Origin: Planctomycetota bacterium
GTDB lineage: Bacteria; Planctomycetota; UBA1135
NCBI GenBank assembly: GCA_024275135.1
Contig: JAJRZS010000018.1
Location: 89,826 to 153,825 of the forward strand
Reading direction: 5' to 3'
DNA: 64,000 nt
Shown: positions 14,926 to 61,234 of the stretch, in pieces
Numbering within the stretch: the stretch's first letter is position 1
Layout of the letters: each line of letters opens with the position of its first letter
The notes under the pieces: generated by a model
What the model was told of the DNA's origin: nothing
The model's database searches: none
The model's input: only the letters and a program-made list of their open reading frames with translations
Made by a program: the position numbers and the translations under genes

Positions 14926-15010
14926 TTCCACCCTACCCTTAGCCTCAATTGCTGCTAGAATCTCCCTCTTCCCGGTGAACCTACTCACCGAAACCCAACG
15001 CGTCAAAGAA

Positions 15011-15721: not shown

Positions 15722-15788
15722 AGAATCTGCTGCTTTTGCGGGGGCTGGGTTACCACCCCCGCACTCCCTGCTAGCTTGAACAAACACC

Positions 15789-16415: not shown

Positions 16416-16426
16416 AGGAGGGAGTG

Positions 16427-27780: not shown

Positions 27781-27842
27781 GTCTGGATTGTAGAGTGCCG
27801 CTGGGCGGGGCCCAACGTCTACTCGGCGAAGACCTTTTGGCC

Positions 27843-39317: not shown

Positions 39318-42300
39318 CTAATCGCCCAAGTAATCGAAACTTACACGAGTAACCCGAAAATAGCCGCCAGCAACGCCACCAATCAAGGTGTTGATTTGGT
39401 CTTGGTCGAACACCAACATGTAACGTACACCACGCAAAATGGTCGCGTTGATTTCCGTCAAACCATCGCTGACTCCCTTGACGCTAGGAATAATCCAATT
39501 GGTTTGCGAAAGCACATTGGGCACAGCTTGCGATGATTCTCCAACTGCTAGCCAACCACCTTGGAAGGCAATCCAAATGGGCGTAGCATCGGGGTCGGTA
39601 GGGTTGGTGTTGGAGAAGCTGAGCGTTTGGACGGCACCATCAAAATATTCGACATCAATCTGCCAACCCGTAATTTCCAAATTTTGAATGTTGGCTGGCG
39701 GTTCATACCAACGGGAACGCACACCGCTGGCATTGCCGTTGAATTGGGTGCCGTCAGAAGCAATCACATCGCCGAGGACTCCGGGTAGGGAGACGGAAAT
39801 CGTACCGACGTTGGGTTGCCCAGCAAATCCAATCGGAGCCAAATCCACTGCCGTGTCGGGCACGACAAAGCCCTGCAACAGAGAAAGGGATTCGCTGCCG
39901 GTGCCCGTATCGAAACGAACCAGGCCTCCTCCACCATCACCACCATGGTTGCCTGCCGAACCAAGACCGCCCGGGCCGCCCTTTACGGAAATTGCATCTA
40001 AGCCAGCTTGGACCAAGCTACCGGCTTGCAACAAAGCAGCGCCGCCGGAGCCTCCTCCACCACCAGCATCCCCTGGAGGGCCAAAGTTAATGGCATCGGG
40101 GGTAGAGAATGGGATGGAAATCATGAACTCGCTGTCACCACCGCGACCGCCATCGAGAAGAACAGAACCATTTACCGAGAGTCGAGAACCTGCATGGAGC
40201 TGCAAGGCACCGCCGCCAGCGCCGCCACCAGCACCAGGACAGTTACGGAAGGTACCAACCTCACCGTCCACGCCGCTAAAGCGATTTTCAATGGATCCAT
40301 ATTCCGACATGCCAGCCCCGCCGCCACCAGAACCACCTAACAATAAGCCGGCTTCGGGATCCAAAGTTTCAATGCCAGCAACGGGAACGTAACGTCCGCC
40401 ATCGGCGTCAGGCAAAGAAGCACTCGGGCCCAAACGCACATCCCACATGTAGTAGTCACCGCCAAGGCCATCCCCGTTAAACTCCACAACATTGTTTGCT
40501 GGGTCTGCAAGCGGCTCCAGGTTTGGGGCAAGAGGTTGGCCCAAGGGGTCGGTTGCTGTGGGGTCGAAGTGGGTGCCGCGACCACCGTCGGTCCAATAAC
40601 CGCCACCGCCACCACCGCGCGCGCGATGAATCGCAAAATCGCCAAATGCCGTAGGTACGCCAGCGCTAAAAGCGGTCGGATGGGTACGCATTTTGACCCC
40701 ATTCAAGAAATTGGAATCCGTGACGGCATCGCTGGTCGGTGGCCAACACCAAGAACCCATACCCGAACCATTATCTTGGTCTACATGCAGGTTATTTGGG
40801 TCGCCAGAGAGGGGCAACCCCGCTGGAGCAACCCCGCCTACACCCTCTGCGTTGGAACCACAAAACTCACTGCCACGAATTTCTTGACGAAAGCGAGCGG
40901 GATTGGGATTACCTGCCCCACTTAGCGCTCCCTGCCAGTTCACCAGCAGAGAGTTTAAATAACCAGTGTTGTCGAATCGAACGTTGTTGTAGTACCAAGC
41001 TTGCCCGCCGACACCACCAGAGCCAGAGCCCAGGCTACCAATTCCAGGAGCGCCACCAAGGGCATTGGCATCGACGCCGTTAGCATCGGTAATGCGGCCG
41101 AAATCGGCTTCGAGGAAAGTGGAGCCTCCAAAACTAGCCTCGTTATCCCACTCTCCGGTATAAAACACTTTACCGCGATGGGTTGGTGCATCCTCACCAC
41201 TCAAATCCATCACCCCATCGATTTGCAAGCTGCCTTGGGCGAAAATCCGCAATGGATTGCTACCCACAGCTTCGATGCGGACTGCAGCAGGTACCAGCAC
41301 ATCGCTGAAGGGGAAGACTCCGCCTTGCACCAGCACCGTCTCGCCCAAAATACTGGAGTTCAGCGCAGGATGGGAATCCGTATCGAAAACGAACAAGCTT
41401 GCCGTGGGCTCAAAATGCCCCAGAATGCCAGAACCACCGCCATGGTGCTTGCCAGTCAGCGGGTCTTGCCCACTGTCTAAAGCACCGGCTACCGCTGACC
41501 ACAAACCCGCGGTACTGCCGGAGTCATCCTCTTTGGCATTGTCGAGAAAATCTTCGGTGAGAGAACCGGTGGACGAAGCAATGGCTGGCAATTGCAAAAT
41601 CCGCGTGCCCGCATTGGAGAGCACATTGCCGACGAGGTCGGCGATTTGTTGAGACAAGCTCACCCGCAGAACCCTGGTTCCACCATTATCACCTGGAAAC
41701 GGAATATCCGGCACAAAGGTCACCACGGTTTGTAGCGCATCTCGGTCCACCACTGCGGTGAACACTCCGGGGAAGTTGAGCTCCTTACCCGTGGCCGAAT
41801 CAAAAGTGCTAATCGAAATGAGAGCACTTTGCCCCGTATCGGGGTTGGCCAACAACAAAGTTTGCATCACATCGCCAAAGGTAAGCACAATATTGAAATT
41901 GCGCGTGGCGGGAATCGTTTGCTCATCAGGAGAGATGGAGAGCAAGGAGGGCGGGCCAGGAACCAAGTCGGTTGGGTCGACAATGGTGATATCGCCGGTG
42001 ATAAAGGTTTGATTCAGCCGTCCGGAGGTTGCGGCCACAGCATTGGCGCTAGCGTCGTCAAGAACCTGGATGCGATAGGTGGAGCCGGTTAAAAACCCAT
42101 ACTGAATACCAGAATTGGTTTCAATGAGACTGGGGCGAAAAATCACCACATTGCCGCTCACCAGGAAGCTTCCAGTAGGGGTGATGCCGGTAGCCTTATC
42201 CACAATGGAGATAGAAGAAAAGTTCACCGTGGTCGGATCCACCTTATCATTGAAGGTGAAGCTGATGTCCATGTTGGCTGGGTGCGAATTGGTGGCAAAG

Positions 42301-42440
42301 GAGCTACCGTTACAGCCCAGAGAACAGACAGACATGCCGAATTCCTGGATTTTGGCACCAGTTTTCGAAGAAGTGCCACAAGCCGCCAATGCACTGAGCA
42401 AGAAAGCGGTGGCAAGAATTTTGCTTGGGGAAGGAAGCAT
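39318..42440 (-). CDS. Giant lipoprotein, Ig-like N-terminus plus Gly-rich beta-helix-like core (paralogue of 49462-53082)
   Basis: Start trimmed to ATG 42440 (MLPSPSKILATAFLLSALAAC). Big_5-type module MDISFTFNDKVDPTTVNFSSISIV. Gly runs with GGALQLHAGSRLSVNGSVLLDGGRGG-type repeats. Confidence 0.8.
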   Translation of the reverse strand: MLPSPSKILATAFLLSALAACGTSSKTGAKIQEFGMSVCSLGCNGSSFATNSHPANMDISFTFNDKVDPTTVNFSSISIVDKATGITPTGSFLVSGNVVIFRPSLIETNSGIQYGFLTGSTYRIQVLDDASANAVAATSGRLNQTFITGDITIVDPTDLVPGPPSLLSISPDEQTIPATRNFNIVLTFGDVMQTLLLANPDTGQSALISISTFDSATGKELNFPGVFTAVVDRDALQTVVTFVPDIPFPGDNGGTRVLRVSLSQQIADLVGNVLSNAGTRILQLPAIASSTGSLTEDFLDNAKEDDSGSTAGLWSAVAGALDSGQDPLTGKHHGGGSGILGHFEPTASLFVFDTDSHPALNSSILGETVLVQGGVFPFSDVLVPAAVRIEAVGSNPLRIFAQGSLQIDGVMDLSGEDAPTHRGKVFYTGEWDNEASFGGSTFLEADFGRITDANGVDANALGGAPGIGSLGSGSGGVGGQAWYYNNVRFDNTGYLNSLLVNWQGALSGAGNPNPARFRQEIRGSEFCGSNAEGVGGVAPAGLPLSGDPNNLHVDQDNGSGMGSWCWPPTSDAVTDSNFLNGVKMRTHPTAFSAGVPTAFGDFAIHRARGGGGGGYWTDGGRGTHFDPTATDPLGQPLAPNLEPLADPANNVVEFNGDGLGGDYYMWDVRLGPSASLPDADGGRYVPVAGIETLDPEAGLLLGGSGGGGAGMSEYGSIENRFSGVDGEVGTFRNCPGAGGGAGGGALQLHAGSRLSVNGSVLLDGGRGGDSEFMISIPFSTPDAINFGPPGDAGGGGGSGGAALLQAGSLVQAGLDAISVKGGPGGLGSAGNHGGDGGGGLVRFDTGTGSESLSLLQGFVVPDTAVDLAPIGFAGQPNVGTISVSLPGVLGDVIASDGTQFNGNASGVRSRWYEPPANIQNLEITGWQIDVEYFDGAVQTLSFSNTNPTDPDATPIWIAFQGGWLAVGESSQAVPNVLSQTNWIIPSVKGVSDGLTEINATILRGVRYMLVFDQDQINTLIGGVAGGYFRVTRVSFDYLGD

Positions 42441-42525
42441 CTTCACAATGACCCGGTCGAAGGAACCAAGACCTCCACGCGAAGGTGCGCGGAGAATGCG
42501 GTCGGCAAAGTTTAGCAGAAACACC

Positions 42526-43482
42526 ATGGACTCACAGACGAACCAACAGCCGGACGCACGGACCCACAAGAGGGCCTCCTTCCTAGTGCACATTCTGTGC
42601 CAACTAGGTCTTTTTGGGCTTTTTTCTCTGTTTTTCGGCACTTCTTCGGGATGCACCCGATCTGCCGACAACTCCACCTACTTCGGCCCGGAAGCGCGCC
42701 AATTGGCCGCTCAATTCCCCACCCCAGAAGCGGCAAAAGAAAGCCTTTTAGTGCGTGCACGCACGGCGGCTGTGCGCCTCCACACAGACGCAACGGCTGA
42801 GGAACTCCCCCATCTTCGCCAGGAACTGGAGATATCGGTGCGTGCCTTGGGCACCATCGAGAACGCAGCCGAGTTTCCGTGGGCAGATTGGATCGAAGAA
42901 AGCCGATTCACTCTTCCCGAATTGGCGGAGCAACAGCTGCTTGCGGCAACGCATCTGCTCCCTGCTGAGGAATCGCTTGCCCTGTGCACCAGCTGCGATT
43001 TCCGCGAGATGCCAGCAAAAATTCGAATCGTGGCCCATCAAACATTTTGGCAACTGGAGCCGAATTTTGCCTATGCACGCGGACGCATCCTACTCTTTCG
43101 GGAATCGACCCGCGCGCGGGATTTGCTTCGCCCCATGTATGTGGAAAAGGTATTGCTCCCCTGCAACCACCCCTTGGTGGAAGAACTCTTACTTGATATC
43201 GCCACCGAGGATTCCATGTCTCCCCGTGCCCGCAATTTGGCCGTGCGCGCTCTGGGTGACCGCAAATCCAAAGATGCCCCCCCCATCCTCGAAAGTCTTT
43301 GGGATACCGAAGCCACGAATTTCTTGGTTCGTAAAGAGGCCCTTCTCGTCATCCTCAAACTGGACCCGGAGCGTGGTCATCACATTCTGCTCGACAAAAT
43401 GCCGTCGCGCGAGATTGAACCTGGCACTTGGCAATTCATGAAAATCCTACGTCAACAGGAAGGCTTGCCTGTACCCGAATGA
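42526..43482 (+). CDS. HEAT-repeat protein with signal peptide/Cys
   Basis: Start trimmed to ATG 42526 (LGLFGLFSLFFGTSSGC). C-terminal HEAT-like units PRARNLAVRALGDRKSKDAPPILESL...VRKEALLVILKL. Confidence 0.6.
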   Translation: MDSQTNQQPDARTHKRASFLVHILCQLGLFGLFSLFFGTSSGCTRSADNSTYFGPEARQLAAQFPTPEAAKESLLVRARTAAVRLHTDATAEELPHLRQELEISVRALGTIENAAEFPWADWIEESRFTLPELAEQQLLAATHLLPAEESLALCTSCDFREMPAKIRIVAHQTFWQLEPNFAYARGRILLFRESTRARDLLRPMYVEKVLLPCNHPLVEELLLDIATEDSMSPRARNLAVRALGDRKSKDAPPILESLWDTEATNFLVRKEALLVILKLDPERGHHILLDKMPSREIEPGTWQFMKILRQQEGLPVPE

Positions 43483-44258
43483 ATTTTCCACTTTTCGACA
43501 GTCACTGCCACCTAACTTGGGAGGAAGAAAAGCATTCCGTAGCCGACACTATTCAGCGTGCTCAGGCCCAGGGAGTGCAAAGATTTCTTTGCGTTGCCAT
43601 CGACCTTGCCAGCGCGCAGCGATGCGCCGCAATTGCCTCCCAACACCAAGGGGTGTTTGCCAGCATCGGCATCCATCCCAATGATGTCGGTGCAGCTGCA
43701 GAGCTTCCCCAACTTCTCTCCCAGCTACAGGAACAGGCGACGGATTCTTCTTTTGTTGCGATTGGAGAAACCGGTCTTGACTTTTTCCGCGACTCGTCGC
43801 AACCCGAAACGCAAATTCAATCCTTGAAAATGCATTTGGAACTGGCCGCAAAGCTGGACTTGCCCATCATTCTGCACTGTCGGTCAGCAATCCAAACACT
43901 GCTGCCAATTCTTCAAGATTTCGGCGCCAAGAGCAAAGGCGTCATGCATTGTTACTCCGAAGGTCCCGAACATATCGAAGCCTTGCTGGAACTTGGACTC
44001 CATATCAGTTTTGCTGGAAATCTAAGTTACCCCAAATCAGAAGCCCTTCGCCAAGCCAGTCGTTTGGTTCCCCTTGATCGCATCTTGGTGGAAACGGATG
44101 CACCTTTCCTTGCCCCCCAAGCCATGCGCGGCAAGCGCAATGAGCCAAGTTTTCTGCCTCACACTCTCGAATGTCTGGCTGAGTCGATGGGGCTCGAAGC
44201 GCAAAGAGTGGCTGCCGCCACCTACAAGAATGCGTGTAAACTGTTCAAGGTAAGCTAG
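43479..44258 (+). CDS. tatD: TatD-family metal-dependent DNase/hydrolase
   Basis: FDSHCHL, AIGETGLDF, ILHCR, VMHCYSEG, LVETDAPFL. ATGA overlap with the HEAT gene stop. Confidence 0.9.
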   Translation: MNFPLFDSHCHLTWEEEKHSVADTIQRAQAQGVQRFLCVAIDLASAQRCAAIASQHQGVFASIGIHPNDVGAAAELPQLLSQLQEQATDSSFVAIGETGLDFFRDSSQPETQIQSLKMHLELAAKLDLPIILHCRSAIQTLLPILQDFGAKSKGVMHCYSEGPEHIEALLELGLHISFAGNLSYPKSEALRQASRLVPLDRILVETDAPFLAPQAMRGKRNEPSFLPHTLECLAESMGLEAQRVAAATYKNACKLFKVS

Positions 44259-44815
44259 TCGGCGGCAACCAAGGATAGTCCCACGTCTTCCGGCGCGAGG
44301 CTGCCTGGAGTATCCACCCAAGATGCCGAAACAGCCGTGGCAAAAACTTGTTGAGTGGAAAAATCAACCCAATAGGTTTGCAGCCCAGAATACTCCCGCA
44401 AGTTCGGCCACGCCCAACAACCGACGACACGTCCATCCTGGTCATGGCCTGCGCGGAATCGATAGCCCGCGCGATGCCCAATGCCCACTCCGTCAAAAAT
44501 CATCTTCGGACGAAAATCAAAAGGCGGTGTGCGTAAAGAAAAAGAACCTGAGGCAGGATTGGGAACGGACTCGGCGAGGGAACGAATTTCGACAAAACTG
44601 CCTTGCTCACGTTTCCACAATTGCTCGGCAGAGGCCATCATGCGTAAATAGGCCACAGCATGGGCTTCGTTTTGGTTTTTCCGTGCTTGCAAGGCCTTCG
44701 GCAATAACCACATAGAGGCTGAAGTGAGCACGGCGATGAAGACAAGCAACTCGGGAAGAGTAAACCCCACCCGCGCCCGGCTCGACACCAGGGTTTTGGT
44801 GAAAGAGACCATCAT
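44255..44815 (-). CDS. Type IV pilin-like protein / pseudopilin
   Basis: Prepilin leader MMVSFTKTLVSSRARVG then FTLPELLVFIAVL (Glu at +5). Start overlaps the EF-G-like stop (TAATG). Confidence 0.8.
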   Translation of the reverse strand: MMVSFTKTLVSSRARVGFTLPELLVFIAVLTSASMWLLPKALQARKNQNEAHAVAYLRMMASAEQLWKREQGSFVEIRSLAESVPNPASGSFSLRTPPFDFRPKMIFDGVGIGHRAGYRFRAGHDQDGRVVGCWAWPNLREYSGLQTYWVDFSTQQVFATAVSASWVDTPGSLAPEDVGLSLVAAD

Positions 44816-46797
44816 TAACTTTGCACCACCTCTTCTCCTTGTGCCGCCATGATGTCGGCCTGGAGATGGGAGGGCACTTCCGCGTAACGCGCCTGTTCCA
44901 TGCGAAAATGTCCTTCGCCATGCGTCATCGCACGCAATTGGGTAGCGTAGGTTTGCAGCTCAGCAAGTGGCACTTCTGCTTGGATGGTTTGGAAATCGCC
45001 CGAGGCTTCCATGCCAAGGATTTGCCCGCGACGGGAATTCAAATCACCACTCACATCGCCGAAGTAACGGGAAGGCACGGTGATGTCCACCTTCATAATG
45101 GGTTCCAATAAAATGGGATTGGCTTTGGTAAAACCATCCACCAAGGCACGCGCACCCGCCGCACGGAAGGAATGCTCATCGGAGTCGACCGCATGGAATT
45201 TGCCGTCATAAAGCTCCACCTTGAGATCAACAACATGGGAACCAGCGATGATTCCTTTCATCATTTGCTCTTCAATTCCCTTCTCCACTGCCGGGATGAA
45301 CTGGCGTGGAATCGCACCTCCCACCACCTTGTCCAAAAATTCGTAACCGGAACCACGTTCGGCTGGAATTAGGCGAATGTAACACTCGGCAAACTGTCCT
45401 TTGCCACCGGTTTGTTTTTTATGGCGATGATGCCCCTCGGACGGGGTGGTGATCGTTTCTTTATAGGCGATGCGGGGCAAGCGAGTATCAACCTCCACAC
45501 CCCGGTTTTGCAAACGAGACAACAAAGCCTTCAGGTGCAACTCACTCAAACCCTCGACAATGGTTTCATGGGTGACTTCATCGTAATGAACCTTAAAACA
45601 AGGATCTTCCCGCTCCAGCTTGTGTAACTCTTGCCCAATCTTTTGTTCGGCAGAACGGTCCTTAGGCACGATGGCATAGGCGGTGTATGGGGTTGGCAAA
45701 GGGAATTGATGGAAATGCCCTTCGCCCGAACTCACGAGAACATCCCCCACACATAAATCTTCGATACGAGAGACGGCAACGATATCCCCTGGCTCTGCCT
45801 TCGACACGCCTTCCAATTTTTCCCCAAAAATCGTCGACAGCCCATTCATTTTGACCTGCTTACCTTCATGAGGATCAATAAGAGGATCACCAGACTTCAA
45901 GGTTCCCTGCAGAATCCGCAGATAGGAAATCTGCCCTAGGTGTTTATCCGTTAGCACCTTCCATACCCGCGCCACGGTACGCTCATCTGCACCTCCACTT
46001 TCGATATTGTCACTGTGCATGGCCGCTAATTGCATGGCCGCATCCGGAAAGTCACGCACCATAAAGTCACCGAACTCCTGCACACCGATACCACGAACAG
46101 GATCCACACAGAACAAAGGAGCAAAGGTTCCTTTCGCCATGGCTACGGGGAAGGCGGCCTCAAGTTCTTGGTGGGAAATATCCCCTTCTTCCAGATATTT
46201 TTCCATCAAGGAATCATTGGCCTCCACCACAGCATCCACTAGATGTTCGCGATGCTCACCCCCTTCCTGTTCGACAACATGAACTTCGGAAAAAGCATCA
46301 CCCGTGCCGTTGGCCAAAGTGAAGGGCACCACCCGCTGGCCAAAAACCTCGCGGATATTGTCGATGACCACATCCAATTCAAGGTTATCGCTATCCAAAC
46401 GGGTCACCACAACCGCGCGGGCCAAGCCAAGAACTCCGGCTTTTTCCCACAGATGAAGAGCGTGAAAAGGAACACCGGTTTCTTTGGCCGGAACCACCAC
46501 CACCGCCGTGCCGGCGGCTCCCATTGAGGTAATGGCATCGGCAACAAAATCTGGGTAACCCGGGGTATCAATCAGATTGAGTTTGCCATGGGGTGCCTCC
46601 AAATGCACCACCGCAGCTGAAAGGCTATGCCGTTTTTCCTTTTCCTCAGGCAAGAAATCACACAGAGTGGTGCCATCTTCCACCGTACCAATGCGGTCTA
46701 AGGCTCCAAAATGATGGGCAATCTTCTCTACCAATGTAGTTTTCCCGGCATCGGAGGAGCCCAGGAAAGTGATGTTGTGGATGTCGGTAGCAGACAT
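44815..46797 (-). CDS. EF-G-family translational GTPase paralogue with altered G motifs
   Basis: Five-domain EF-G pattern (SDAGKTT; RHKKQTGGKGQFAECYIRLIP; DGKFHAVDSDEHSFRAA). Differs from canonical in DTPGYPDF (not DTPGHVDF) and TRLD (not NKxD). ATG 46797; ORF opens at TTG 46830. Confidence 0.9.
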   Translation of the reverse strand: MSATDIHNITFLGSSDAGKTTLVEKIAHHFGALDRIGTVEDGTTLCDFLPEEKEKRHSLSAAVVHLEAPHGKLNLIDTPGYPDFVADAITSMGAAGTAVVVVPAKETGVPFHALHLWEKAGVLGLARAVVVTRLDSDNLELDVVIDNIREVFGQRVVPFTLANGTGDAFSEVHVVEQEGGEHREHLVDAVVEANDSLMEKYLEEGDISHQELEAAFPVAMAKGTFAPLFCVDPVRGIGVQEFGDFMVRDFPDAAMQLAAMHSDNIESGGADERTVARVWKVLTDKHLGQISYLRILQGTLKSGDPLIDPHEGKQVKMNGLSTIFGEKLEGVSKAEPGDIVAVSRIEDLCVGDVLVSSGEGHFHQFPLPTPYTAYAIVPKDRSAEQKIGQELHKLEREDPCFKVHYDEVTHETIVEGLSELHLKALLSRLQNRGVEVDTRLPRIAYKETITTPSEGHHRHKKQTGGKGQFAECYIRLIPAERGSGYEFLDKVVGGAIPRQFIPAVEKGIEEQMMKGIIAGSHVVDLKVELYDGKFHAVDSDEHSFRAAGARALVDGFTKANPILLEPIMKVDITVPSRYFGDVSGDLNSRRGQILGMEASGDFQTIQAEVPLAELQTYATQLRAMTHGEGHFRMEQARYAEVPSHLQADIMAAQGEEVVQS

Positions 46798-46820
46798 GGG
46801 GTGTGCTTGCGTGGGATGGG

Positions 46821-46858
46821 GAAAAAACAAGGCACCGAGTGGGTGTCCACTCGATGCC
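46821..46858 (-). terminator. Strong rho-independent terminator/attenuator after OmpA-like gene
   Basis: Minus-strand RNA forms GGCAUCGAGUGG-ACAC-CCACUCGGUGCC (11 WC + 1 G-U) followed by UUGUUUUUUC. The plus-strand version would carry a C-A mismatch and has no U-run. Confidence 0.7.
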
Positions 46859-46880
46859 TAAAAGCCTAGCAAATCTTTGC

Positions 46881-47567
46881 TTAGGGAAGCACCAGGATTT
46901 CCACCCTTCGGTTGCGGGCTTTGCCTTCTTTGGTGCTGTTGTCGTCTTTCGGCGACCATTCGCCATGGCCAGCAACACGGATGAACTGGGAGTCGATTCC
47001 TTTCTCGGAAATGAGGTAATCGGCAACGGAAAGAGCGCGATTGACCGAGAGTTCTAGGTTGCTCTTCCAGCCCGATTTTTTTGGCTGGTCGGAATCGGTG
47101 TGGCCCTCAATCCAGAAGGTTTTGCCCTCGTAATCCGATTTCAGGATATCCGCCACCATGTCCATGGTTTTCTTGCCCTGTTTATTGAGGTCGGCCTTGC
47201 CGGAGCCAAAGGTGAGGTTGGAATCCACGCCGAGCACAATGAATCCACCGCGCGATTCCACGCTGACATCAGAACCAAGACGCGCTTGCAAATCAGCAAC
47301 TTCTGCATTTTGCTGTTGCAAGGCAGCTTCCCGAGCCGCCAAGCGATCCTGAATTTCTGCATTGCGCTGCTGCTCAAAGCTCAACTGGTCGGTGAGCGCA
47401 GCGTTTTCTGCACGGATGCGATCGCGCTCCATGCGCAGCTTGTCGGAATCGGCCTTGTAGGCTGCCAGTTGTTGGTCTTGGTCCTCAAGCATCTGGCGAT
47501 GCAAGTTGCTTTGGCAGGCCGGAGCCACCAAGGCGATGAGGGCGATGAGAAGAGTGGATTGCTTCAT
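46881..47567 (-). CDS. OmpA-C-like peptidoglycan-binding protein with coiled-coil spacer
   Basis: Signal peptide ending in Cys (LVAPAC), ~90-aa heptad-like Gln/Ala/Arg region, then OmpA core GHTDSD...NLELSVNRALSVADYL...NRRVEILV. Confidence 0.85.
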   Translation of the reverse strand: MKQSTLLIALIALVAPACQSNLHRQMLEDQDQQLAAYKADSDKLRMERDRIRAENAALTDQLSFEQQRNAEIQDRLAAREAALQQQNAEVADLQARLGSDVSVESRGGFIVLGVDSNLTFGSGKADLNKQGKKTMDMVADILKSDYEGKTFWIEGHTDSDQPKKSGWKSNLELSVNRALSVADYLISEKGIDSQFIRVAGHGEWSPKDDNSTKEGKARNRRVEILVLP

Positions 47568-47589
47568 GAGGATGCGCTTTGGGAGGAAC

Positions 47590-48591
47590 CTAGCCGTTTA
47601 AGAAGTGGGGCCAGGTTTGAAGGAAGAACTGATGGACGGTGGCGGGAGCCATCAGTGTGAGGATGGTCCCGAGAATCAGCGGCGGGCCAAACGGAATCGT
47701 CCGTCCTGCCTGCCAGCCGACATAAGCGGACCCATGCACATAGGTATGGGCTTTGCCTTGGGTGCGGCGACGGTGGCGAACCACCAAAATCATCCGCACG
47801 ACATTGACCACACCGAGCAATGCGCCCGCAAAGACGCCAACCGCGAGAGTCCACAAAGAACCCTCTAGGCCGAGGAAGGCGCCGACAGCGGCGAGGTACT
47901 TGACATCACCGAAGCCCAACGCTTCCTGCCTAAGAAGATAGGAAAAAAGGCGACCAATTCCAAACAGGAACCCGAAAGAAATCAAAGAACTAAGGATTCC
48001 TGAAATCAGGGCGAGCTGGGAAGGCGGCATTTCCGGGCTGAGTCCAAACCAGGAGGCACCCAGGGGCATTTGCTCCAAGCCTGGCCACAAATGGAAGGCA
48101 GGTACCAGATAGGCCGCGAGCAAGCCAAAGGGGATGCCGCCCAGAGTGATGCCGTCGGGCAGAATGAAATGGCGAAAATCCACAGCCGCGGCAATCCACA
48201 GCCCGCAGAGGGCGACAAAAGCGAGCACAAGCGCCAGAGCGCCCCCCCCCTGACTCAAGTCGGCTAACCAACTATGTCCCGCCAGCCAAAATAAGAGAGC
48301 TAAGCCAATTTCATGCACCAAATAACCAGGGCCAAAGGCGGCGTGGCAATCTCGGCAGCGACCGCGCAGCAGCAAATAGCCAAGTATAGGTAAATTATCA
48401 TGCCAGCGAATGGTGGCATGGCAGCAGGGACAGTGGGAGCGCGCAGGACGGGCAATGCTCATCCCCTCGCGCGGAATGCGGAAAACGGCAGCAGACGCAA
48501 AGGAGCCGGCCATAGCCCCGCTGAGGACCAGGAAAAAGGAATAGAGCCCAGGACTCTCCTGCTGCAGGACCTCCAACCAACTCATTGCCAT
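47590..48591 (-). CDS. pilD: Prepilin peptidase (A24 family, PilD/GspO)
   Basis: N-terminal Cys box CPCCHATIRWHDNLPILGYLLLRGRCRDC and FGDVKYLAAVGAFLG active-site Asp region. Start at ATG 48591, or TTG 48621. Confidence 0.85.
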   Translation of the reverse strand: MAMSWLEVLQQESPGLYSFFLVLSGAMAGSFASAAVFRIPREGMSIARPARSHCPCCHATIRWHDNLPILGYLLLRGRCRDCHAAFGPGYLVHEIGLALLFWLAGHSWLADLSQGGGALALVLAFVALCGLWIAAAVDFRHFILPDGITLGGIPFGLLAAYLVPAFHLWPGLEQMPLGASWFGLSPEMPPSQLALISGILSSLISFGFLFGIGRLFSYLLRQEALGFGDVKYLAAVGAFLGLEGSLWTLAVGVFAGALLGVVNVVRMILVVRHRRRTQGKAHTYVHGSAYVGWQAGRTIPFGPPLILGTILTLMAPATVHQFFLQTWPHFLNG

Positions 48592-48627
48592 GATTGTGGC
48601 CTGGCCTCCGATAGAATCCAAGCGCCT

Positions 48628-49455
48628 TTAGGAATCGTCGGCGCTTTGCGGACGCGGCACACATCGTAGGATGCGATCGCTCCCGGGCAGTGGCCATCCC
48701 CCCAGGCCCTCCAAGCCTGCGGGCAATTCCAAAATACCCCAAGCCTGCGGCTGCAAAAGGTGCACTTCAATTTCGGCAAAATCGTAGCGGTTGGCAACCA
48801 AGTGCATCGGAACCGCAATGGTTTTGGCCTGTCCGCGCGGCCGCCACTGGGCCTGCGCGGACAAACTCCGTGGATCCAAGCCACGGGTAAAACGCAGCCG
48901 GAGGGGGGTATCCGCAGAAAAGACGAAGGGATCTTGCAACGAGGCCCGCTGCAAGCGTAAATCCGACGACTCCACGCCAAGCCCACTCAAGGCACTCGAC
49001 GCTTGGGCATCTAAGGTATGAAACCGAAGCATCAGGTCCTGCGCCAGGACATGACCATCCGCGGAACGTAGAGCTCGCAGCCAAGGCAAGCCGAAAAGAT
49101 GAATCGCGTAATTTTGCTGGGGCAGCAAACTGCCATCGCTGAGGTCGGGTGACAAAGGCAAACGCGGCTCCAGATAGAGCCAACGTCCAACCACACTGCT
49201 GTGGATGCCAGCAACAACCCGCCCCCCCTCATCCAATAATTCCACAGAGCTGGCGCGAAAGGGTTGTGCCAAGGGCTGCGCAAACTCCACTCTCAGAATC
49301 TGGTCCAAAGCCACTGCAGTGCCGTCGTCTCCCGTCCACGACAACACCTCCAGCGCCAACGGCTCTGGGTGCGGGCTGCAAGCGGTTAGGACAACAACAA
49401 CCCCTGCTCCGCGGCACAACGACCAAAGAGCAGGGGTTGGGAAAAAACTCAACAA
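48628..49455 (-). CDS. Small lipoprotein with Big_5/SbsA-like Ig module
   Basis: VVVVLTAC lipobox; VALDQILRVEFAQPLAQPFRASSVELLDEGGRVV module. TTG start 6 nt after the upstream stop. Confidence 0.6.
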   Translation of the reverse strand: MLSFFPTPALWSLCRGAGVVVVLTACSPHPEPLALEVLSWTGDDGTAVALDQILRVEFAQPLAQPFRASSVELLDEGGRVVAGIHSSVVGRWLYLEPRLPLSPDLSDGSLLPQQNYAIHLFGLPWLRALRSADGHVLAQDLMLRFHTLDAQASSALSGLGVESSDLRLQRASLQDPFVFSADTPLRLRFTRGLDPRSLSAQAQWRPRGQAKTIAVPMHLVANRYDFAEIEVHLLQPQAWGILELPAGLEGLGGWPLPGSDRILRCVPRPQSADDS

Positions 49456-49461
49456 ATCGTC

Positions 49462-52400
49462 TTACCAAGCAATGGGTAGCTTGATGTATTCCAAAGAGGG
49501 ACGTTCTTTATCCACAGTTGGGCCAGCATTCAAGGCATCAATGTTGAAGGTTACCCGGTAGCGAATGAAGCGCATGCCCTTGAGATCCGCCAAGGTGGTG
49601 ACCCCATCCCCCGTCCATGGTGTGGTGGCTGCCAAGTCGGGAATGTTCGAGCCAGGGGAAGTTTCTTCGGTGCCTTGGAACTGAATGCGCACGCTAGCGG
49701 AAATGGGCAAACGATCCTTGGTATCGGTGGTGGTGATGCGGAAGAACTTCGCCTGCACAGCCCAGTTCAGAGAGGCCAACAGAGCCATGGGACCATCCGA
49801 CACACGCGTCGATAACACCAAAGTTTCAGGCGCTGCGGTGTATACAGCATCCACGATTTCAAAACTTGCTGGGGTTAGCTGGGTGGTGTCGGGAACCACG
49901 TCGTAGCCAATTAACAAACGCGGATTGCGCAGGAAGTCGGCGACAAAGGAGGCAGAGGGGTTGGTGATAGTGACCGTGTAGTTTTGGAAGGAAGCAGTTC
50001 CGGCACCTCCATCGGAGCCGACCACCGCGCCGGGAGTGACCAAGTTGGCGCTCGTGTTCACCAGTCCGGTGAGCGGATCAATGCCGGCAAAGCTCAAGGC
50101 AGGATCGGCGTAATCAGGGAATGGGCCAACCCCATTGGCCGGATTGCGCAATTCAGCCAGCCCCGTATCAATCCACTTGCTCTGGAACTGCGACTCGGGG
50201 GAATACATCGGCACCAGGGTGAACGGAGTTGGGATGGCATAGACCCCGAGCACTTCATCCTGGCGATCGGAGATGACCGGATTGGTCAAATCCTGGGCCG
50301 TGATGTACTGCTTGAAAGCCGCATCCACATTGGGGTGGTAGGTGATATCGGTTAGCGGGTTCGGCACATGGATTTGGATTAATCCACTCGCACCGGCACC
50401 GCCGCGGCCAGTCATGTAGGTGCTATTGCCATCGTAACCAACGCCATTCGAACCTTCTGCCCCAGTGAGGTTATCAGCATTGCTTTCATTGAAGCCACCA
50501 TTCGAAGTGCCTGCTGCAAACCGGCTTCCCGCCCATCCCCGGCGACCGCCAATGGCCTGAATCAGGTGGGCTGGAGTGATGCTGTCGAAGAAGGTGGCCG
50601 GGATACCCGGATCTCCAGGCAAGCCAACGTCAATCAAACTCAAGTTGAGGCCCGAAGCGGAATGCAACACGATATGTCCGCCGGAGCCACCGCCGGAGCC
50701 GGAAACCTGCGAAGTGGACCCCCACAGGGTGCCTTCTGCTGTGGACTCGCCCCCATTGCCGGAACCGCCATTGGCTTTCAAGATGGCAGCCGGTCCCAAA
50801 GTAATCGGCCCCAAGGCCAGGATTTGGACTTGACCACCACCGCCGCCGCCAGGAGCACCCCGGAAGTAGCGAGCGGTGAAACCATAGGGGAAATTTTGGT
50901 CGGGGAAGTGGTCGCCAAGGATGTCTTGTTGATCATTGCCGTCAACGTCAAGCAAACGGAACAAGGTTTGCAAGTCACCGCTGGCTCCCCCTCCGGAGCC
51001 GGCAGACGGCGCCAACAACTCACCCGTAATCAACACAGGTTCGGTTCCTGGAGTACCATCCCAGTAGTAGCGTTGTCCCCAGAAGTTATTGCTTGGATCA
51101 GCATCCTGGAAGATGGGTGCGCCGCCAACGCCACCATCAGGGCCAATGGTGGGGCTACCGAAAGCATAATCAATGCCGGAAACACTGGTTTGCGGCGGAT
51201 CAAAGGTAATGTCCGGCTCTTCTCCGTTACTCAATTGGGGCAAGATATCCGGACTTTGATCTTCAAAGCCATGCACGCCGTGGGGATCTTGGCGCGCTTG
51301 ATCGCTGGCAGGAACATCGTTGCCCAGGCTGCTACCGCGCAAACCGTCTTCAGCACCCATAAAGGTAGTGTTGGGATCCAAAGTACCATTGAAAATGGTG
51401 TGACGATCAACACGCAAATCGGGGCCTGAGTTTTCGAAGGTGCCCGGGTTTTCTAGCAAGCTCCAACGATCCCAGAAAATGGCGTCGGTACGACCCTCCG
51501 AAAAACCGCCGCCACCGCCACCGCCAGCAAGCAGGAAATCCGAGGAAACAAGAGTAGGACTCAAAGCTGGATTGCGGTCTTGTTGGTAGCCCCCTTCTCC
51601 GCCTTCTCCGCCTGCATGCAGCAAGCCAAAAGGACCGTCACCATTTTCGCCACGAGGCGTGTAGTCGTCAGTGACCCAAGAAGCATCGCCGCCATCTCCA
51701 CCGCCACAAGCACCAGAAGCGCCTGGAACCATAATTTCGGGATGGAAGGCGCCGCCGTCAGGTTGCGTTGCGTTGAAGCCGCTCGCATCCAAGGTGCCCA
51801 AAAGAATGGCCTCGCCGGACACATAGACGATAAACGGGTTGCTGCCGGTAGCACGTAAAGTTGCCCCGGCTTCAATGGTGAAGTCGTGGACGTTCAAAAC
51901 TCCATGGTCGACAGTGAAGACTTTGCCATTGCCGTCCGTGACCTGCACCACATCCGTGGTGTCGATAGCCAAAACCCCTTGCGCTGTGGTCACCACAAAG
52001 TTTTGGTCCACCCCCACTGGAGTGCCCGGGAAGGGGAAACCTGCGGTGACCAAATCCGGAGTGACAATGGCCGAAGGCTGTGGCAGGTCGGCCTCAAAGT
52101 CGATGTTGTTCGGAGTGCCGAAATCATCGCGAAATTCATCGTAAGTGACATCGGCTTCGGTAAAGGTGGGCCCACTGGCGTAAAAGGAACTCAAGGTAGG
52201 CAGGGTGACTGGCGCCGACACGATTTTACTGGTGTTGGAATTGCCACCAATGTCTTCAAAATCGGGGGTGAGCACCACGCGAATGTCTCTTCCCGGAATC
52301 AAAATGCCACTAACGACAAAATGCAGAACAGCCCCGTCGCCACAATTGCTCACCACTTGCCAATTGCCAGCAATGATATTGCCGGAACTTGGAAAGACCC

Positions 52401-53082
52401 CACCTGGGTTGGAATACTGCACATACAAGCGATCGGGCTGCAAGTTGGCCGGATCCGGATTAATGGACTGGTTGAAGCCCAACACCAAGATGGTGGCATC
52501 CTGGGACATCAGGCCCAAGGCGTTAGGCACTTGCAGAGATTGCAGCATCGGCGGCCCAACAATGGTGTCGGCAAACAAAACATCGCCAATGGCCGGGGTG
52601 CGGAAAGTGCGGGTTAGGCCAACCGAAAGTTGATGCCCTGCAACATCACGCAATACGCTTGAGCCTCCAGATCCTTGGGTTGGCAAAACCAACTCGTAGT
52701 TCAAGCTTCCCGGCACAAAGCCACCGTTGGTGTTGCTGGCATTGGTGGGACAAGCCGGATTGAATTGGATGCCGAAGTTGGCATTGCCATCCGCGTCGGC
52801 AATCAGTTCAAAAGTTCCGGTCACCGGGTTGCCCGAATTGCTGGGATCGGTGGGGCGCAAAATGACAGAGCCGAAACTTACCGAGTTGGGATCTACCGCA
52901 TTGTTAAAGAAAATCTTGATGGGTCGGTTCAAAAACCAACTATCACCATCGCTCACATTGGTGGTTTGAACTTTAAAGGCACCGATGGCTGGGGCTGAGG
53001 CTTTACAGCCAACCAAGACTGGCACCACCAAGGCACTCAACAGCACCAAACTGCGCGACAAAGGGAATCGGGATGGAGTCAT
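49462..53082 (-). CDS. Giant lipoprotein (1206 aa), Ig-like N-terminus plus Gly-rich beta-helix-like core
   Basis: MTPSRFPLSRSLVLLSALVVPVLVGC. RPIKIFFNNAVDPNSVSFGSVILRP module. GGGGGG runs with GGHIVLHSASGLNLSLI-type strands. Start overlaps the upstream stop by 1 nt. Confidence 0.85.
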   Translation of the reverse strand: MTPSRFPLSRSLVLLSALVVPVLVGCKASAPAIGAFKVQTTNVSDGDSWFLNRPIKIFFNNAVDPNSVSFGSVILRPTDPSNSGNPVTGTFELIADADGNANFGIQFNPACPTNASNTNGGFVPGSLNYELVLPTQGSGGSSVLRDVAGHQLSVGLTRTFRTPAIGDVLFADTIVGPPMLQSLQVPNALGLMSQDATILVLGFNQSINPDPANLQPDRLYVQYSNPGGVFPSSGNIIAGNWQVVSNCGDGAVLHFVVSGILIPGRDIRVVLTPDFEDIGGNSNTSKIVSAPVTLPTLSSFYASGPTFTEADVTYDEFRDDFGTPNNIDFEADLPQPSAIVTPDLVTAGFPFPGTPVGVDQNFVVTTAQGVLAIDTTDVVQVTDGNGKVFTVDHGVLNVHDFTIEAGATLRATGSNPFIVYVSGEAILLGTLDASGFNATQPDGGAFHPEIMVPGASGACGGGDGGDASWVTDDYTPRGENGDGPFGLLHAGGEGGEGGYQQDRNPALSPTLVSSDFLLAGGGGGGGFSEGRTDAIFWDRWSLLENPGTFENSGPDLRVDRHTIFNGTLDPNTTFMGAEDGLRGSSLGNDVPASDQARQDPHGVHGFEDQSPDILPQLSNGEEPDITFDPPQTSVSGIDYAFGSPTIGPDGGVGGAPIFQDADPSNNFWGQRYYWDGTPGTEPVLITGELLAPSAGSGGGASGDLQTLFRLLDVDGNDQQDILGDHFPDQNFPYGFTARYFRGAPGGGGGGQVQILALGPITLGPAAILKANGGSGNGGESTAEGTLWGSTSQVSGSGGGSGGHIVLHSASGLNLSLIDVGLPGDPGIPATFFDSITPAHLIQAIGGRRGWAGSRFAAGTSNGGFNESNADNLTGAEGSNGVGYDGNSTYMTGRGGAGASGLIQIHVPNPLTDITYHPNVDAAFKQYITAQDLTNPVISDRQDEVLGVYAIPTPFTLVPMYSPESQFQSKWIDTGLAELRNPANGVGPFPDYADPALSFAGIDPLTGLVNTSANLVTPGAVVGSDGGAGTASFQNYTVTITNPSASFVADFLRNPRLLIGYDVVPDTTQLTPASFEIVDAVYTAAPETLVLSTRVSDGPMALLASLNWAVQAKFFRITTTDTKDRLPISASVRIQFQGTEETSPGSNIPDLAATTPWTGDGVTTLADLKGMRFIRYRVTFNIDALNAGPTVDKERPSLEYIKLPIAW

Positions 53083-56000
53083 CAGTTTGTAGTGTAGGCG
53101 AAGCCGAAGGCGTCAAGTTCCGCTAGGAGGTCTTGTTGGATGTTGGAGACGAAGGTGAAGCGGAGTTGGAAGTATTGGCGTCCGTCATTCACCAGGTCGG
53201 CAGGATCGGAGTACCAATCGGATGGGGTGGAAAGGATAGCGCAGCCGTCGTAATCCGCGTAGGCGTCAAAATCAGTACTGGCATCGTTTAGAGGTGTTGA
53301 TGAAAAGCAGCCAGAGACATTGATGGAATCGACCGAGCGGAACTGAACCTCCACCGAAGTACCAGGATTGGCTTGTACCGCAGTCGGCTCAATGGTGAGG
53401 CTCGACATGGAAGCTAAAGTGCCTCCCAAGTCAAACCAGTGGGTGTAAACCTTGCTGACCTTGGTGACAAAATCCACCTGCCCCCAATACAGTTCGGGGC
53501 CAAAACCTTTGGTGCCCGTCCCGGTAATTGTGTTGTAGCCTCCATTCGGATTGGTGCCTTCCGGCGGCAAATCCGGACGCACCAAATGCCATTGGCCACC
53601 GCCATCCCGGCCACCCGAGGAGAACACACGGAAAGCAGGAACATTGGAGGAGCCAACCATGATTTGCACCTGGAAACCGTTGAAGCCAAATTCGTTGCCA
53701 CGGGGATAGGCGCGGAAATGCATCAACAAGGGCAAGGCAATACTTGGATAATAGCCTTTCTCGTAGGTTGGTGGTGCATCGTTGACCACCCTTGGAGGCA
53801 CGCCCCAACCAGCGGCATCGGAGGAGCTGGGGTTTCCTCCTACTAAGGTACCTCCATTAGGCACAGGGAAATCCGTGTCCCGCCAAGTGTAGGTAGTGGT
53901 GAAATCGGGCCATGGGTACATGGTGACTCCACCGGAAGTGGTAAAGCGATTGACCCCCGAAATTTCGTAAGTGGTGTCAAACATGATGACTTCATCCAAA
54001 TCCTTATACAACACTGGATCTTGACCGAAGCCGTAGATGTTGTCATCAAATTTGTTGGAAGTTAGACGTTTTAGGCCGGAGTTGTAATACTGAGGATAGC
54101 CAGTGGATTGGTTAATAAAATCATCGGGGAAGCGGTTGGAGTGCGCCAAGGCCAAAGAGTAGCGATCAAAGGTATCGTCAAACACCACCCCATCAAAGGG
54201 GGACCAGTTCAAACCTTCCACATCCAAGTTGAACTCGCTGATGCTGGATAAACCAAAACCTAAGTGGTGATAACCATACACCGTCATCAATACCGAGCCA
54301 GCTGGTGCTAACGGCGTCATCACCCCAGAGGCAAATTTCAATCGTTGGCCCACATATTGGTTGGTTTGGTCCGCCTGGCGGGAAAAGCGCGTAATGGCGC
54401 GGCCGCGCAAAACGCCGTCACCCACAATCGGGCCAAGTTGTCCGCCATATTCGGGAGCCTGGTCGTTATCTTCATCCACCCCGTTGCCACGCAAGGCGAA
54501 GTATTTGTCGACAGGAGCCGTTCCTGCTACAGAAAATTGTTCGGTTTGGCTGGAGTGGCCAGCAACAAATCCGGTGAAATCCACGACATTGCCCGCCAAG
54601 TCCAAGATTCCCGTATTGCCATCACGCAAGGCGAGTGAAATTTGCATGCTGGGTTCATTAAAGGCATTGGTAATGCCAGCGACCGGAGCCAAGGTGAAGG
54701 TTTGCGCGTCCCCGGAAGCTTGAATGGGGCCGAACATAATACGACCAGGGCCCCCACCCGAGCCAAAGCCAGGCAAACGATCGATGTAATCAGGAACGGT
54801 TTCCCCACCGACCTTATTCCATTCATCGTTATTGTCACCAGCGCCGATGGTTCCCGATGCCAACACCATCGAATCCAAAGACCGCACGGTGGTGGTGTCC
54901 ATGGGTTCACTGAAGCGAACCGAAATCGTGGCGTAAGGATCCACCCCTTGAGCGGGGTAGGTGGTTGGCGCCGGAGTGATGGTGAGGAAACAAAGCTGAA
55001 GGTCGGAATCCGCCACCGTGTAGCGAGTGGTGAGGTTACCCGACAAGTTGGCACTGCCTCCGGGCAAGGTGCCGGACAACAGAACGCCCTGCACCGAATA
55101 GGCCGCGCTATTTGAAGCGTCAACAACCGAAGTGATTTGAACCAGGGCATCGCCAATTTCGAACACATCCCCCTCTTTGGGAGAAATGCCTCGGCAGTTC
55201 ACAGCATCGATGGAATACACCATGTTGCGTTGTTGACCAGCGGCCGTCACCGTGGCGATGGTGACATTCTGCGTGACAATCAAAGATGGCTTTGCCGTAT
55301 CCACCAAGAAGCCATTAAAAACATCCTGCTTGTTGCCTGTGCGCACGGCGCGAATGGAGACAGGATCGAGGCCAGCAAACTCATGGGGCTCGACAATGGA
55401 CGTGCCTGCAGCGTTCCTGGTGACGTCAAAAGTATGCGTGCCCTGTTTGTTAGTGAGCAGCATCGTTTGATTGATGAACGGATTGATTTTGGTAGGAATC
55501 CGAATCTTAAGATTGGGTGTGGCCTGGTCGATGGATTCGGGAAAACCAATTCCGTTTTGGGGAAGCCCCAAAGCTTGCGAATCAGCCTTGGAAATGGTGG
55601 GATCCAAAATCACAACACCCTTGGGCTGCCCATCCTGACCGATCCCCTCTTTCACCACATAACGCACCTCCAAGGAAACAAAGCTCTCACTAGTGGTGCC
55701 AACCAAAACTTGAATAGTCTGGCGATCCACGGTGGATGGATCCAGAAATTCTGAGAACTCCAGACGAATGGCACCATTGCGAGCAACCTTGGTGAAGGGG
55801 CCCGGGTCATCAAAGCTCTTCGCTTGCAATGAGGCCAAACCAGAGCGGGCATCGGCCAAGGCGGTATCGAATTGCGGGGTCCCCTGCGCGGCCAAAATTT
55901 TCAATATTTCGGTTTGCGTGATGGGGTTTTGACTGAGTTCATAAGACAAACCATCACTGCGCACGTCCTCGCGGATAATGACGTCTTGTTCTACCAACAC

Positions 56001-56192: not shown

Positions 56193-56194
56193 GC

Positions 56195-59311: not shown

Positions 59312-59444
59312 CCTGGAGAGGTGGGTCACGGTTTCCATGTGGATTGGGGACGTACGGTTGCGCTGCACCGAGGGCCCTATCGTAGAAACTTCAGGCCAAG
59401 TCCGCTGTATCTATACGAGCAATTCCCATACCAATCCCAGAAAT

Positions 59445-60889: not shown

Positions 60890-61216
60890 TCAATTCACCC
60901 GATAAGCGAAGCCAAAAGCGTCAAGCTCTGCCAGTAGCTCTTGTTGGATGTTGGAAACGAAGGTGAAGCGCAGTTGAAAATACCGGCGTCCGTCTTGCAC
61001 CAATTCAGCTGGATCGGAATACCAATCAGACGGGGTAGAAAGGATGCCGCAGCCACGGTAATCCGCATAGGCATCAAAATTGGTGCTGGCATCGTTTAAG
61101 GGGGTGGACGAAACGCATCCAGACACGCTGATGGAATCGACCGAACGGAACTGAACTTCCACCGAAGTCCCGGGATTGGATTGCGCCAAAGAGGGCTCGA
61201 TGGTGAGACTGGACAT
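60890..61216 (-). pseudogene. Orphan copy of the C-terminal ~108-aa module of giant lipoprotein 53082-56192 (remnant or stand-alone domain ORF)
   Basis: Gap-free hand alignment to codons encoded by 53082-53408 gives 93/108 aa identical. No signal peptide, no upstream homology beyond ~61240, no SD. Confidence 0.6.
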
Positions 61217-61234
61217 GAAAGCCAAGTTGCCGAT

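Follow-up and report, generated by a model that had tools for sequence, protein, structure and literature searches.

The stretch of DNA considered here, referred to as the window, comprises 64,000 nt from a Planctomycetota bacterium (GenBank assembly GCA_024275135.1, contig JAJRZS010000018.1, positions 89,826 to 153,825 of the forward strand). On its minus strand lies a gene encoding a paralogue of elongation factor G (EF-G), the stop codon of which overlaps the start codon of a gene for a type IV pilin-like protein (Table 1). The paralogue is a typical representative of EF-G2 (EFG II), a known family of elongation factors present as second copies. In the direction of transcription, the surrounding genes run as follows: three encoding giant proteins, one encoding a 275 aa lipoprotein, a prepilin peptidase gene (pilD), a gene for an OmpA-like protein (ompA), a hairpin, the EF-G2 gene and the pilin-like gene. 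Beyond these are convergent TatD and HEAT-repeat genes, and then a fourth giant.

Table 1. Positions, within the window, of the EF-G2 gene, its diagnostic motifs and the neighbouring features
Feature	Position	Strand	Basis or remark
EFG II/EF-G2-family elongation factor G paralogue, 660 aa	44815..46797	-	translation, Pfam, NCBIfam, diagnostic residues, AF2
G1/P-loop GSSDAGKT, residues 13-20 (AHIDAGKT in canonical EF-G)	46738..46761	-	alignment to T. thermophilus EF-G
Switch I/G2 KRHSLS, residues 55-60 (RGITIT in canonical EF-G)	46618..46635	-	alignment to T. thermophilus EF-G
Switch II/G3 DTPGYPDF, residues 77-84 (DTPGHVDF in canonical EF-G)	46546..46569	-	sequence and alignment
G4 TRLD, residues 132-135 (NKMD in canonical EF-G); Asp135 invariant	46393..46404	-	alignment, clade comparison
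TAATG, overlap of EF-G2 stop and pilin-like start	44813..44817	-	sequence
Type IV pilin-like protein (class III signal peptide), 186 aa	44255..44815	-	invariant motif in orthologues, weak Pfam matches, AF2
Terminator-like hairpin: 13 bp stem with 8 GC pairs, loop of 4, then TGTTTTTT	46830..46859	-	between the OmpA-like and EF-G2 genes
OmpA/MotB-like peptidoglycan-binding lipoprotein, 228 aa	46881..47567	-	Pfam OmpA 1.5e-19
Prepilin peptidase (PilD, peptidase A24)	47590..48621	-	Pfam A24_N_bact 1.1e-22, Peptidase_A24 1.2e-11
Putative lipoprotein, 275 aa, no Pfam family	48628..49455	-	conserved in cluster
Three tandem paralogous giant lipoproteins, 1206, 1041 and 1057 aa	49462-53082, 53082-56207, 56195-59368	-	Pfam, lipobox Cys
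Fourth giant, 1119 aa, Gly 15%	39318..42677	-	past the convergent HEAT-repeat/TatD pair; same place in L001, L003 and L004

Pfam matched all five EF-G domains in the 660 aa product (GTP_EFTU, EF-G_D2, EFG_III, EFG_IV and EFG_C), in agreement with the original prediction, made from the letters of the window alone, of a full five-domain EF-G-like protein. The ATG at 46797 was preferred as the start codon to an upstream TTG at 46830, since the close homologues are also 660 aa in length and have the N-terminus MSA.D. Motif equivalences were read from an alignment to Thermus thermophilus EF-G, and the three unusual motifs that had been picked out, DTPGYPDF, TRLD and KRHSLS, were each recovered by translation and alignment. 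In the P-loop, Gly13 is found in place of Ala and a Ser-Ser pair in place of His-Ile, with Asp16 unchanged; switch I aligns as E-KRHSL (KRHSL being residues 55-59) to the E-RGITI of T. thermophilus EF-G, with Ser58 standing where the Mg-coordinating Thr would be; and in switch II the catalytic His is replaced by Tyr81, encoded by a TAC codon at 46555-46557 on the minus strand.

Profile searches place the protein within EFG II, the subfamily of Margus et al. (2011) and Atkinson (2015). It passed the NCBIfam cutoffs for NF009381 (PRK12740.1-5; 716 bits, cutoff 583) and NF009891 (610 bits, cutoff 597), and did not reach those of the lineage-specific equivalogs NF009377 (EF-G2; 504 against 890) and NF058620 (Bacteroides; 443 against 1000). 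For the G domain alone, the best matches in the PDB were 9K0Z (119 bits), then 7UVP and then 1WDT, all above every canonical EF-G; their equivalent motifs are DTPGYADF and TKLD in 9K0Z, DCPGSDDF in 7UVP, and DAPGYGDF and TKLD in 1WDT. Diagnostic residues were compared between 15 canonical EF-Gs and 62 EFG II proteins from other phyla, among the matches listed in one genome scan, and the window protein agrees with EFG II at G13, L22, R35, S58, V278, R344 and E384. The type I EFG II positions in Table 1 of Margus et al. (2011) include those of G13, L22, S58 and R344, and the protein accordingly has Gly rather than Ala at the start of the P-loop, Leu rather than Thr after GKTT, Ser rather than Thr in G2 and Lys/Arg rather than Gly in domain II. 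Its KRHSL is also a relaxed switch I of the kind described for EFG II in 2011 (consensus xxxSx, with variants xxHSL and rxhSl, in place of RGITI), found together with a retained G1, the DxPG of G3 and the Asp of G4.

The same assignment emerged from phylogeny and structure. In a distance tree of 99 sequences, constructed by neighbour-joining, the window protein fell inside EFG II, the bipartition from EFG I being recovered in 100 of 100 bootstrap replicates, and it grouped with planctomycete and gamma/betaproteobacterial EFG II proteins, again with 100/100 support. An AlphaFold2 (AF2) model of the protein (pLDDT 88) had as its best PDB match 1WDT, the EF-G-2 of T. thermophilus (TM 0.85, 35% identity), and its superposition on structures of EF-G and EF-G2 in the ribosome-bound state gave TM values of 0.86-0.90. 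Family model, motifs and tree are thus all outside canonical EF-G, bearing out the description of the gene as a non-canonical paralogue, and the public label of 'elongation factor G' attached to proteins of this clade is misleading; EF-G2/EFG II fits better. The proteobacterial members (gamma and beta; loci L011, L015, L016, L021, L022 and L037) share the xxHSL-type switch I with the planctomycete proteins which, together with the bootstrap support for their grouping, suggests an old transfer of EFG II between the proteobacteria and Planctomycetota. No pilus genes were found near these proteobacterial loci.

It is very improbable that the gene is instead the main canonical translocase, fusA. 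Its five-domain architecture is complete, its domain IV loops are conserved and its public annotation reads as such; however, AHIDAGKT, RGITI, DTPGH and NKMD are all absent from the protein, which scores 490.6 against a cutoff of 659.4 for the TIGR00484 equivalog, and this candidate was dropped on the strength of the motifs and that score. The gene is also outside the str operon, rpsL, rpsG and tuf not being seen among the window open reading frames (ORFs) scanned against Pfam. A second EF-G ORF was not found within the 64-kb window, and a published survey of 305 genomes found a lone EF-G always to be of the EFG I type, with Planctomycetes using spdEFG1 and spdEFG2. A Tet(M)/Tet(O)-like ribosomal protection protein is scarcely credible: the weak, family-level similarity to tet_protect models would be in its favour, but the scores against NF012153 (277 bits, cutoff 775) and NF033148 (176 bits, cutoff 1100), and the approximately 150 bits obtained with TetM and TetO in the PDB against 368-412 for EF-G and EF-G-2, effectively refute it, and Tet proteins keep DTPGH. 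Identity with the recycling-only factor spdEFG2, or mitochondrial EF-G2, was likewise rejected, given a score of 194 bits with RRF2mt (7l20) against 412 with EF-G and 368 with T. thermophilus EF-G-2, and the replacement of His by Tyr.

Neither of the most conspicuous substitutions is confined to this gene. Among the 120 best database homologues, the switch II position is Tyr in 104 and His in 14, with the N-terminus missing from the remaining two, and Thr opens G4 in 116 of 117; these frequencies (for Tyr, 104 of 118 scorable proteins) allow sequencing noise to be dismissed as their source. The change from His to Tyr, which it had been proposed to follow across the clade, is therefore general there but not absolute. 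In EFG II proteins from approximately 60 other genomes of many phyla, among the matches listed, the His position is occupied by Y (the commonest), F, E, D, S, L, M, A or G, and all the canonical EF-Gs listed in that scan have DTPGHVDF and NKMD. The His to Tyr replacement, a G4 of the form T-K/R-x-D and a relaxed switch I are the published, ordinary signature of EFG II/EF-G2, and are not peculiar to the window gene.

Across 18 clade members of 40-78% identity, residues G18, K19, D77, P79, G80, T132 and D135 are invariant, as are HKKQxGGxGQ and GxxHxVDS, the two loops at the tip of domain IV. G4 had been described as degenerate, a term that does not fit given the invariance of its guanine-specifying Asp; the accompanying view of the protein as GTP-binding seems well founded, as the P-loop G..GK, DxPG and G4 Asp are all invariant across the clade. 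The conservation of both the nucleotide-binding core and the domain IV tip loops over this range of identities argues for selection acting on GTP binding and engagement of the A site, that is, on a ribosomal function. Hence the non-translational role that had been offered as one possibility is disfavoured, because the loops that enter the ribosomal A site have not been permitted to vary within the clade.

The TAA stop codon of the EF-G2 gene (44815-44817) has its final A in common with the ATG (44813-44815) of the pilin-like ORF. This overlap, which had been noticed originally, was confirmed in the sequence and is kept in all four loci of the window's subclade, although its form varies: TAATG in the window, ATGA in L003 and, in L001 and L004, an ATG and a TTG located 10 and 22 nt, respectively, ahead of the point at which the EF-G2 gene ends. 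The N-terminus of the pilin-like ORF, MMVSFTKTLVSSRARVG/FTLPELLV (...RVG/FTLPELLV), is a class III (prepilin) signal, and the motif G17-F18-x-L20-x-E22-L23 is invariant in the four orthologues. Pfam N_methyl matches to these proteins are weak and below the cutoff (E values of 0.053 to 0.00045), and the AF2 model, predicted from a single sequence with a pLDDT of 46, gives a weak hint of topology, namely four strands that come after a long helix at the N-terminus. The presence of the overlap in all four subclade loci, and an invariant prepilin motif in pilin-like proteins only around 30% identical to one another, support the two genes forming a conserved bicistronic unit, in which translation would be coupled. 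The pilin-like gene, the minus-strand 3' end of which is at 44255, overlaps by four bases (44255-44258) with the 3' end of a convergent plus-strand gene of the TatD family, which stops at 44258; no space is left for a terminator between them.

Synteny around the EF-G2 gene was scored with hidden Markov models built from the cluster proteins. Upstream pilD and ompA genes on the same strand were found at 10 of 12 clade loci, as opposed to one of 62 assessable EFG II/EF-G loci elsewhere among the matches listed (Fisher p ~1e-9, a value that ignores shared ancestry). The gene order of the window is repeated around homologues of 67, 60 and 58% identity. Around homologues of 42-48% identity, one of which retains DTPGH, pilD-ompA-EFG is kept, and after it come pilC and genes resembling pilT and pilB, together with one for a TPR protein and others for N-methyl pilins; the series pilT-pilB-pilC-pilins is found downstream of the EF-G2 gene in five loci (L005, L006, L008, L009 and L092). 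The EF-G2 gene hence has a conserved location in a pilus gene cluster, judged from both its upstream and its downstream neighbours, and the suggestion that its setting is unusual proved correct, that setting also being conserved. Among the window ORFs scanned, pilB, pilT and pilC were not found; it is the relatives that carry them beside the EF-G2 gene. A group of homologues with His in switch II (DTPGHPDF; proteins P0081, P0083, P0084, P0089-92, P0094, P0096, P0099, P0101, P0102 and P0108, e.g. L009 10001-12034), in which G4 is mostly THLD and switch I mostly has Thr for Ser, shares the pilD-ompA...pilT-pilB-pilC setting and so offers a natural comparison of the Tyr and His types.

The linkage is neither universal nor purely one of pilus genes. 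In the deep branch represented by Ca. Scalindua (L007 7554-12046), the order is pilD-ompA-GATase-EFG, the GATase being hisH-like, and in a Phycisphaerae metagenome-assembled genome within the sister group (L063 3041-8357) it is pilD-ompA-hisH-hisA/F-EFG; these interposed his genes indicate that the pilD-ompA-EFG block is an old synteny of mixed function. No pilus genes were found near the EF-G2 gene in the clade loci L090 and L091. The core linked group has 84% neighbour-joining bootstrap support, and its union with the Scalindua branch 27%. Nothing relevant to a link between EF-G or EF-G2 and pilus genes was found in the literature searched, and the conserved pilus-gene neighbourhood and the overlap with a pilin gene appear to be unreported, the substitutions themselves having already been documented.

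The hairpin between the OmpA-like and EF-G2 genes is the top-scoring terminator-like site in the region 43400-49600 and has a run of T after its stem, with similar hairpins lying directly after the stop codon of the OmpA-like gene in L001, L003, L004 and L008. With so strong a terminator-like structure in this position, the EF-G2 gene is probably transcribed apart from pilD-ompA. Scanning 44000-48000 with Rfam at E<=1 identified no RNA family, and thus no known leader or riboswitch precedes the EF-G2 gene; an alignment of the ompA-EFG intergenic sequences from four loci revealed no conserved sequence motif, the position of the hairpin alone being common to them. A scan for sigma-70 promoters upstream of the EF-G2 gene also found nothing, though this consensus may not apply to Planctomycetes.

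Such conservation of context might be explained by recruitment of the paralogue into the type IV pilus/giant-lipoprotein surface system, either as a GTP switch acting on the motor or PilD, or as a translation factor for the pilins and the other proteins of the cluster. The Planctomycetota branch of EFG II, with its G4 of T-K/R/H-x-D and mostly Tyr in switch II, would now be a partner of that system, in which it might link pilus biogenesis to pilin synthesis or ribosome state, or serve as a GTP switch on the pilus machinery. The location of the gene between pilD-ompA and pilT-pilB-pilC-pilins in five loci is suggestive of such a partnership, as are the survival of the pilD-ompA-EFG adjacency through repeated rearrangement on both flanks, the overlap kept within the window subclade and the absence of pilus linkage from 61 of the 62 loci elsewhere among the matches listed; no precedent for it emerged from the literature. 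However, we consider it unlikely, a direct role in the pilus being weakened by the hairpin that follows the OmpA-like gene in most loci, by the his genes between ompA and the EF-G2 gene, with no pilus motor genes after it, in L007 and L063, by the two clade members, L090 and L091, that lack nearby pilus genes, and by the invariance of the domain IV loops that contact the ribosome. The protein is also without a membrane or secretion signal, and the giants are merely 9-15% Gly. The related proposal of a factor dedicated to 'Gly-rich giants' was discarded, as these proteins are lipoproteins of 8.9-15% Gly encoded upstream of the terminator-like hairpin.

At the other extreme, the adjacency to pilus genes could be no more than neutral, inherited gene order around a generic EFG II protein. 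The occurrence of hisH, hisA/F, hexapeptide transferase and RecJ genes inside or beside the block in the deep branches would be expected on this basis, as would the loss of linkage at L090 and L091 and also for L010, L023, L036 and L051, paralogues from the Pirellulales, Planctomycetaceae and Phycisphaerales. Nevertheless, this too seems doubtful, since the adjacency holds down to around 40% protein identity while both flanks change, and the overlap of stop and start codons has been kept in all of the subclade loci despite the divergence of the pilin-like proteins.

The interpretation that we favour, and think probable, is that the gene encodes an EFG II alternative or condition-specific ribosomal elongation factor, the expression of which is tied to the pilus/surface locus. 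Such a protein would bind GTP and associate with the ribosome, its domain IV occupying the A site, and would be without the canonical apparatus for hydrolysis triggered by the sarcin-ricin loop (SRL): as the catalytic His is replaced, and with it the His-Ile pair of the P-loop and the Ile of switch I (part of the 'hydrophobic gate'), canonical SRL-triggered hydrolysis appears unlikely on the evidence of the sequence. Its most likely role would be that of an alternative, condition-specific or stress elongation factor. It may be a slow translocase powered by the binding rather than the hydrolysis of GTP, as reported for Bacteroides EF-G2 (or Thermus EF-G-2, in which hydrolysis is retained); alternatively, in line with the proposal made for mycobacterial EF-G2, it may respond to stress by holding ribosomes in the post-translocation state. 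In the planctomycete lineage, the gene has been long inherited beside pilD and the OmpA-like gene, and the simplest reading of this would be that it is expressed in conjunction with the pilus/surface apparatus, for instance under nutrient limitation or in an attached lifestyle, without the protein being a component of the pilus. The analysis shows the motif states, the family membership, the fold, the synteny and the overlap of the ORFs; from these we infer GTP binding, ribosome binding, a weak ribosome-stimulated GTPase, co-regulation with the pilus and that the genome has another EF-G.

Several observations weigh against this interpretation of an alternative ribosomal factor with impaired hydrolysis. 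Tyr at the His position fits active and inactive GTPases alike, because Thermus EF-G-2, with DAPGY, hydrolyses GTP and mycobacterial EF-G2 does not; hence the original prediction of impaired hydrolysis stands in so far as the catalytic apparatus has been dismantled, but Tyr alone is insufficient proof of a dead GTPase. Furthermore, one subclade has regained or retained His together with a switch I Thr, and the clade keeps the P-loop Asp lost by most EFG II proteins, on account of which GTPase competence may vary inside the clade. Finally, the conserved place of the gene among those of the pilus could signify more than co-regulation.

The OmpA-like protein has a lipobox, LVAPAC, and a coiled-coil N-terminal half. 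The 275 aa putative lipoprotein has equivalently placed homologues in L001, L003 and L004, and is weakly similar to proteins of around 600 aa in L005, L008 and L009. The giants, of about 1000-1200 aa, have lipoboxes and constitute one paralogous family; the tandem three have Gly contents of 13.4, 10.8 and 8.9%, in the order of Table 1, and weak Big_5 matches are found in three of the four, among the tandem copies in the 1041 and 1057 aa proteins only. Homologues of the giants are encoded upstream of pilD in L001-L006, L008 and L009; the family may consist of adhesins associated with the pilus or the surface. A 114 aa ORF (60893-61234, minus strand) is 85% identical to residues 929-1041, the C-terminal 113, of the giant encoded at 53082-56207, and looks like a duplicated remnant of the C terminus of a giant, lying past an aspartate carbamoyltransferase gene. 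The product of the latter (59526-60848, minus strand), a 440 aa aspartate/ornithine carbamoyltransferase, has a C-terminal match to PyrI_C, the metal-binding domain of the regulatory chain of aspartate carbamoyltransferase, and may be a catalytic-regulatory fusion. Elsewhere in the window, two genes of the secretin family are found on the plus strand (8359-10920, 853 aa; 18546-21179, 877 aa), between which lie the gene for a TPR protein and, at 14858-16936, a MotA/ExbB-ExbD-ExbD set, and a ComEC-like gene is present at 27795-29921.

EFG II is widespread, and its role was described as unknown in a 2015 survey of translational GTPases, and the three members that have been studied, from Thermus, Mycobacterium and Bacteroides, have given differing results. 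At the level of motifs, the window gene brings nothing new; it is the pilus neighbourhood and the pilin overlap that provide a modest lead into the biology of the family. The planctomycete clade constitutes a natural experiment, in which Tyr and His versions occur in one genomic setting by pilD and the pilus motor genes. If the linkage reflects co-regulation, it points to a condition in which these organisms switch elongation factors. A direct partnership, if true, would mean that a translational GTPase has taken on a role of a new kind, as the first such paralogue dedicated to an envelope system, and would give EFG II a concrete context.

Comparison with characterised systems sets the window protein amongst these factors. 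It resembles canonical EF-G (EFG I, the str-operon fusA product) in domain architecture, the domain IV tip loops and the G' subdomain, and canonical EF-G gives the top full-length PDB scores, which derive from domains II-V (412 bits); it differs in the AHIDAGKT, RGITI, DTPGH and NKMD motifs and in the str operon context. The spdEFG1/spdEFG2 proteins of spirochaetes, planctomycetes and deltaproteobacteria, related to mitochondrial EF-G1/EF-G2, also occur in this phylum and are the expected housekeeping EF-G pair in Planctomycetes, but the window protein is without the KDG switch I insertion of spdEFG, mtEF-G2 retains the catalytic His, and the scores with the mitochondrial factors (282 bits for mtEF-G1 and, as given above, 194 for mtEF-G2/RRF2mt) are below those with EF-G and EF-G-2.

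Among EFG II proteins, T. thermophilus EF-G-2 (1WDT/2DY1) also has five domains and aligns end to end with the window protein (665 and 660 aa, respectively), has DAPGY in switch II and TKLD in G4, and shares both the Gly at the start of the P-loop and the Leu after GKTT. No pilus-gene context has been described for its gene, and the window protein differs from it in having the P-loop Asp (GSSDAGKT); it is published as hydrolysing GTP and supporting poly(Phe) synthesis. Mycobacterium smegmatis EF-G2 (9K0Z/9K10) has the same DTPGY (Tyr98 for His88) and a TKLD (Thr148 for Asn), but has GPSGGGKT, hence no P-loop Asp, is 709 aa long and belongs to a different EFG II sub-group. It binds nucleotide, is without ribosome-dependent GTPase activity and has been proposed to trap post-translocation ribosomes under stress; according to a 2026 preprint, its G2 (switch I) and G5 are non-conserved, and the H88Y substitution nearly abolishes the ribosome-dependent GTPase of EF-G1. 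Bacteroides thetaiotaomicron EF-G2 (fusA2; 7UVP/8DMF; NF058620) is likewise of the EFG II type and without the catalytic His, with a TM of 0.89, although its motifs are DCPGS and NQLD rather than DTPGY and TRLD; this protein, described as a slow translocase, is induced 238-fold by carbon limitation and is needed for colonisation of the gut.

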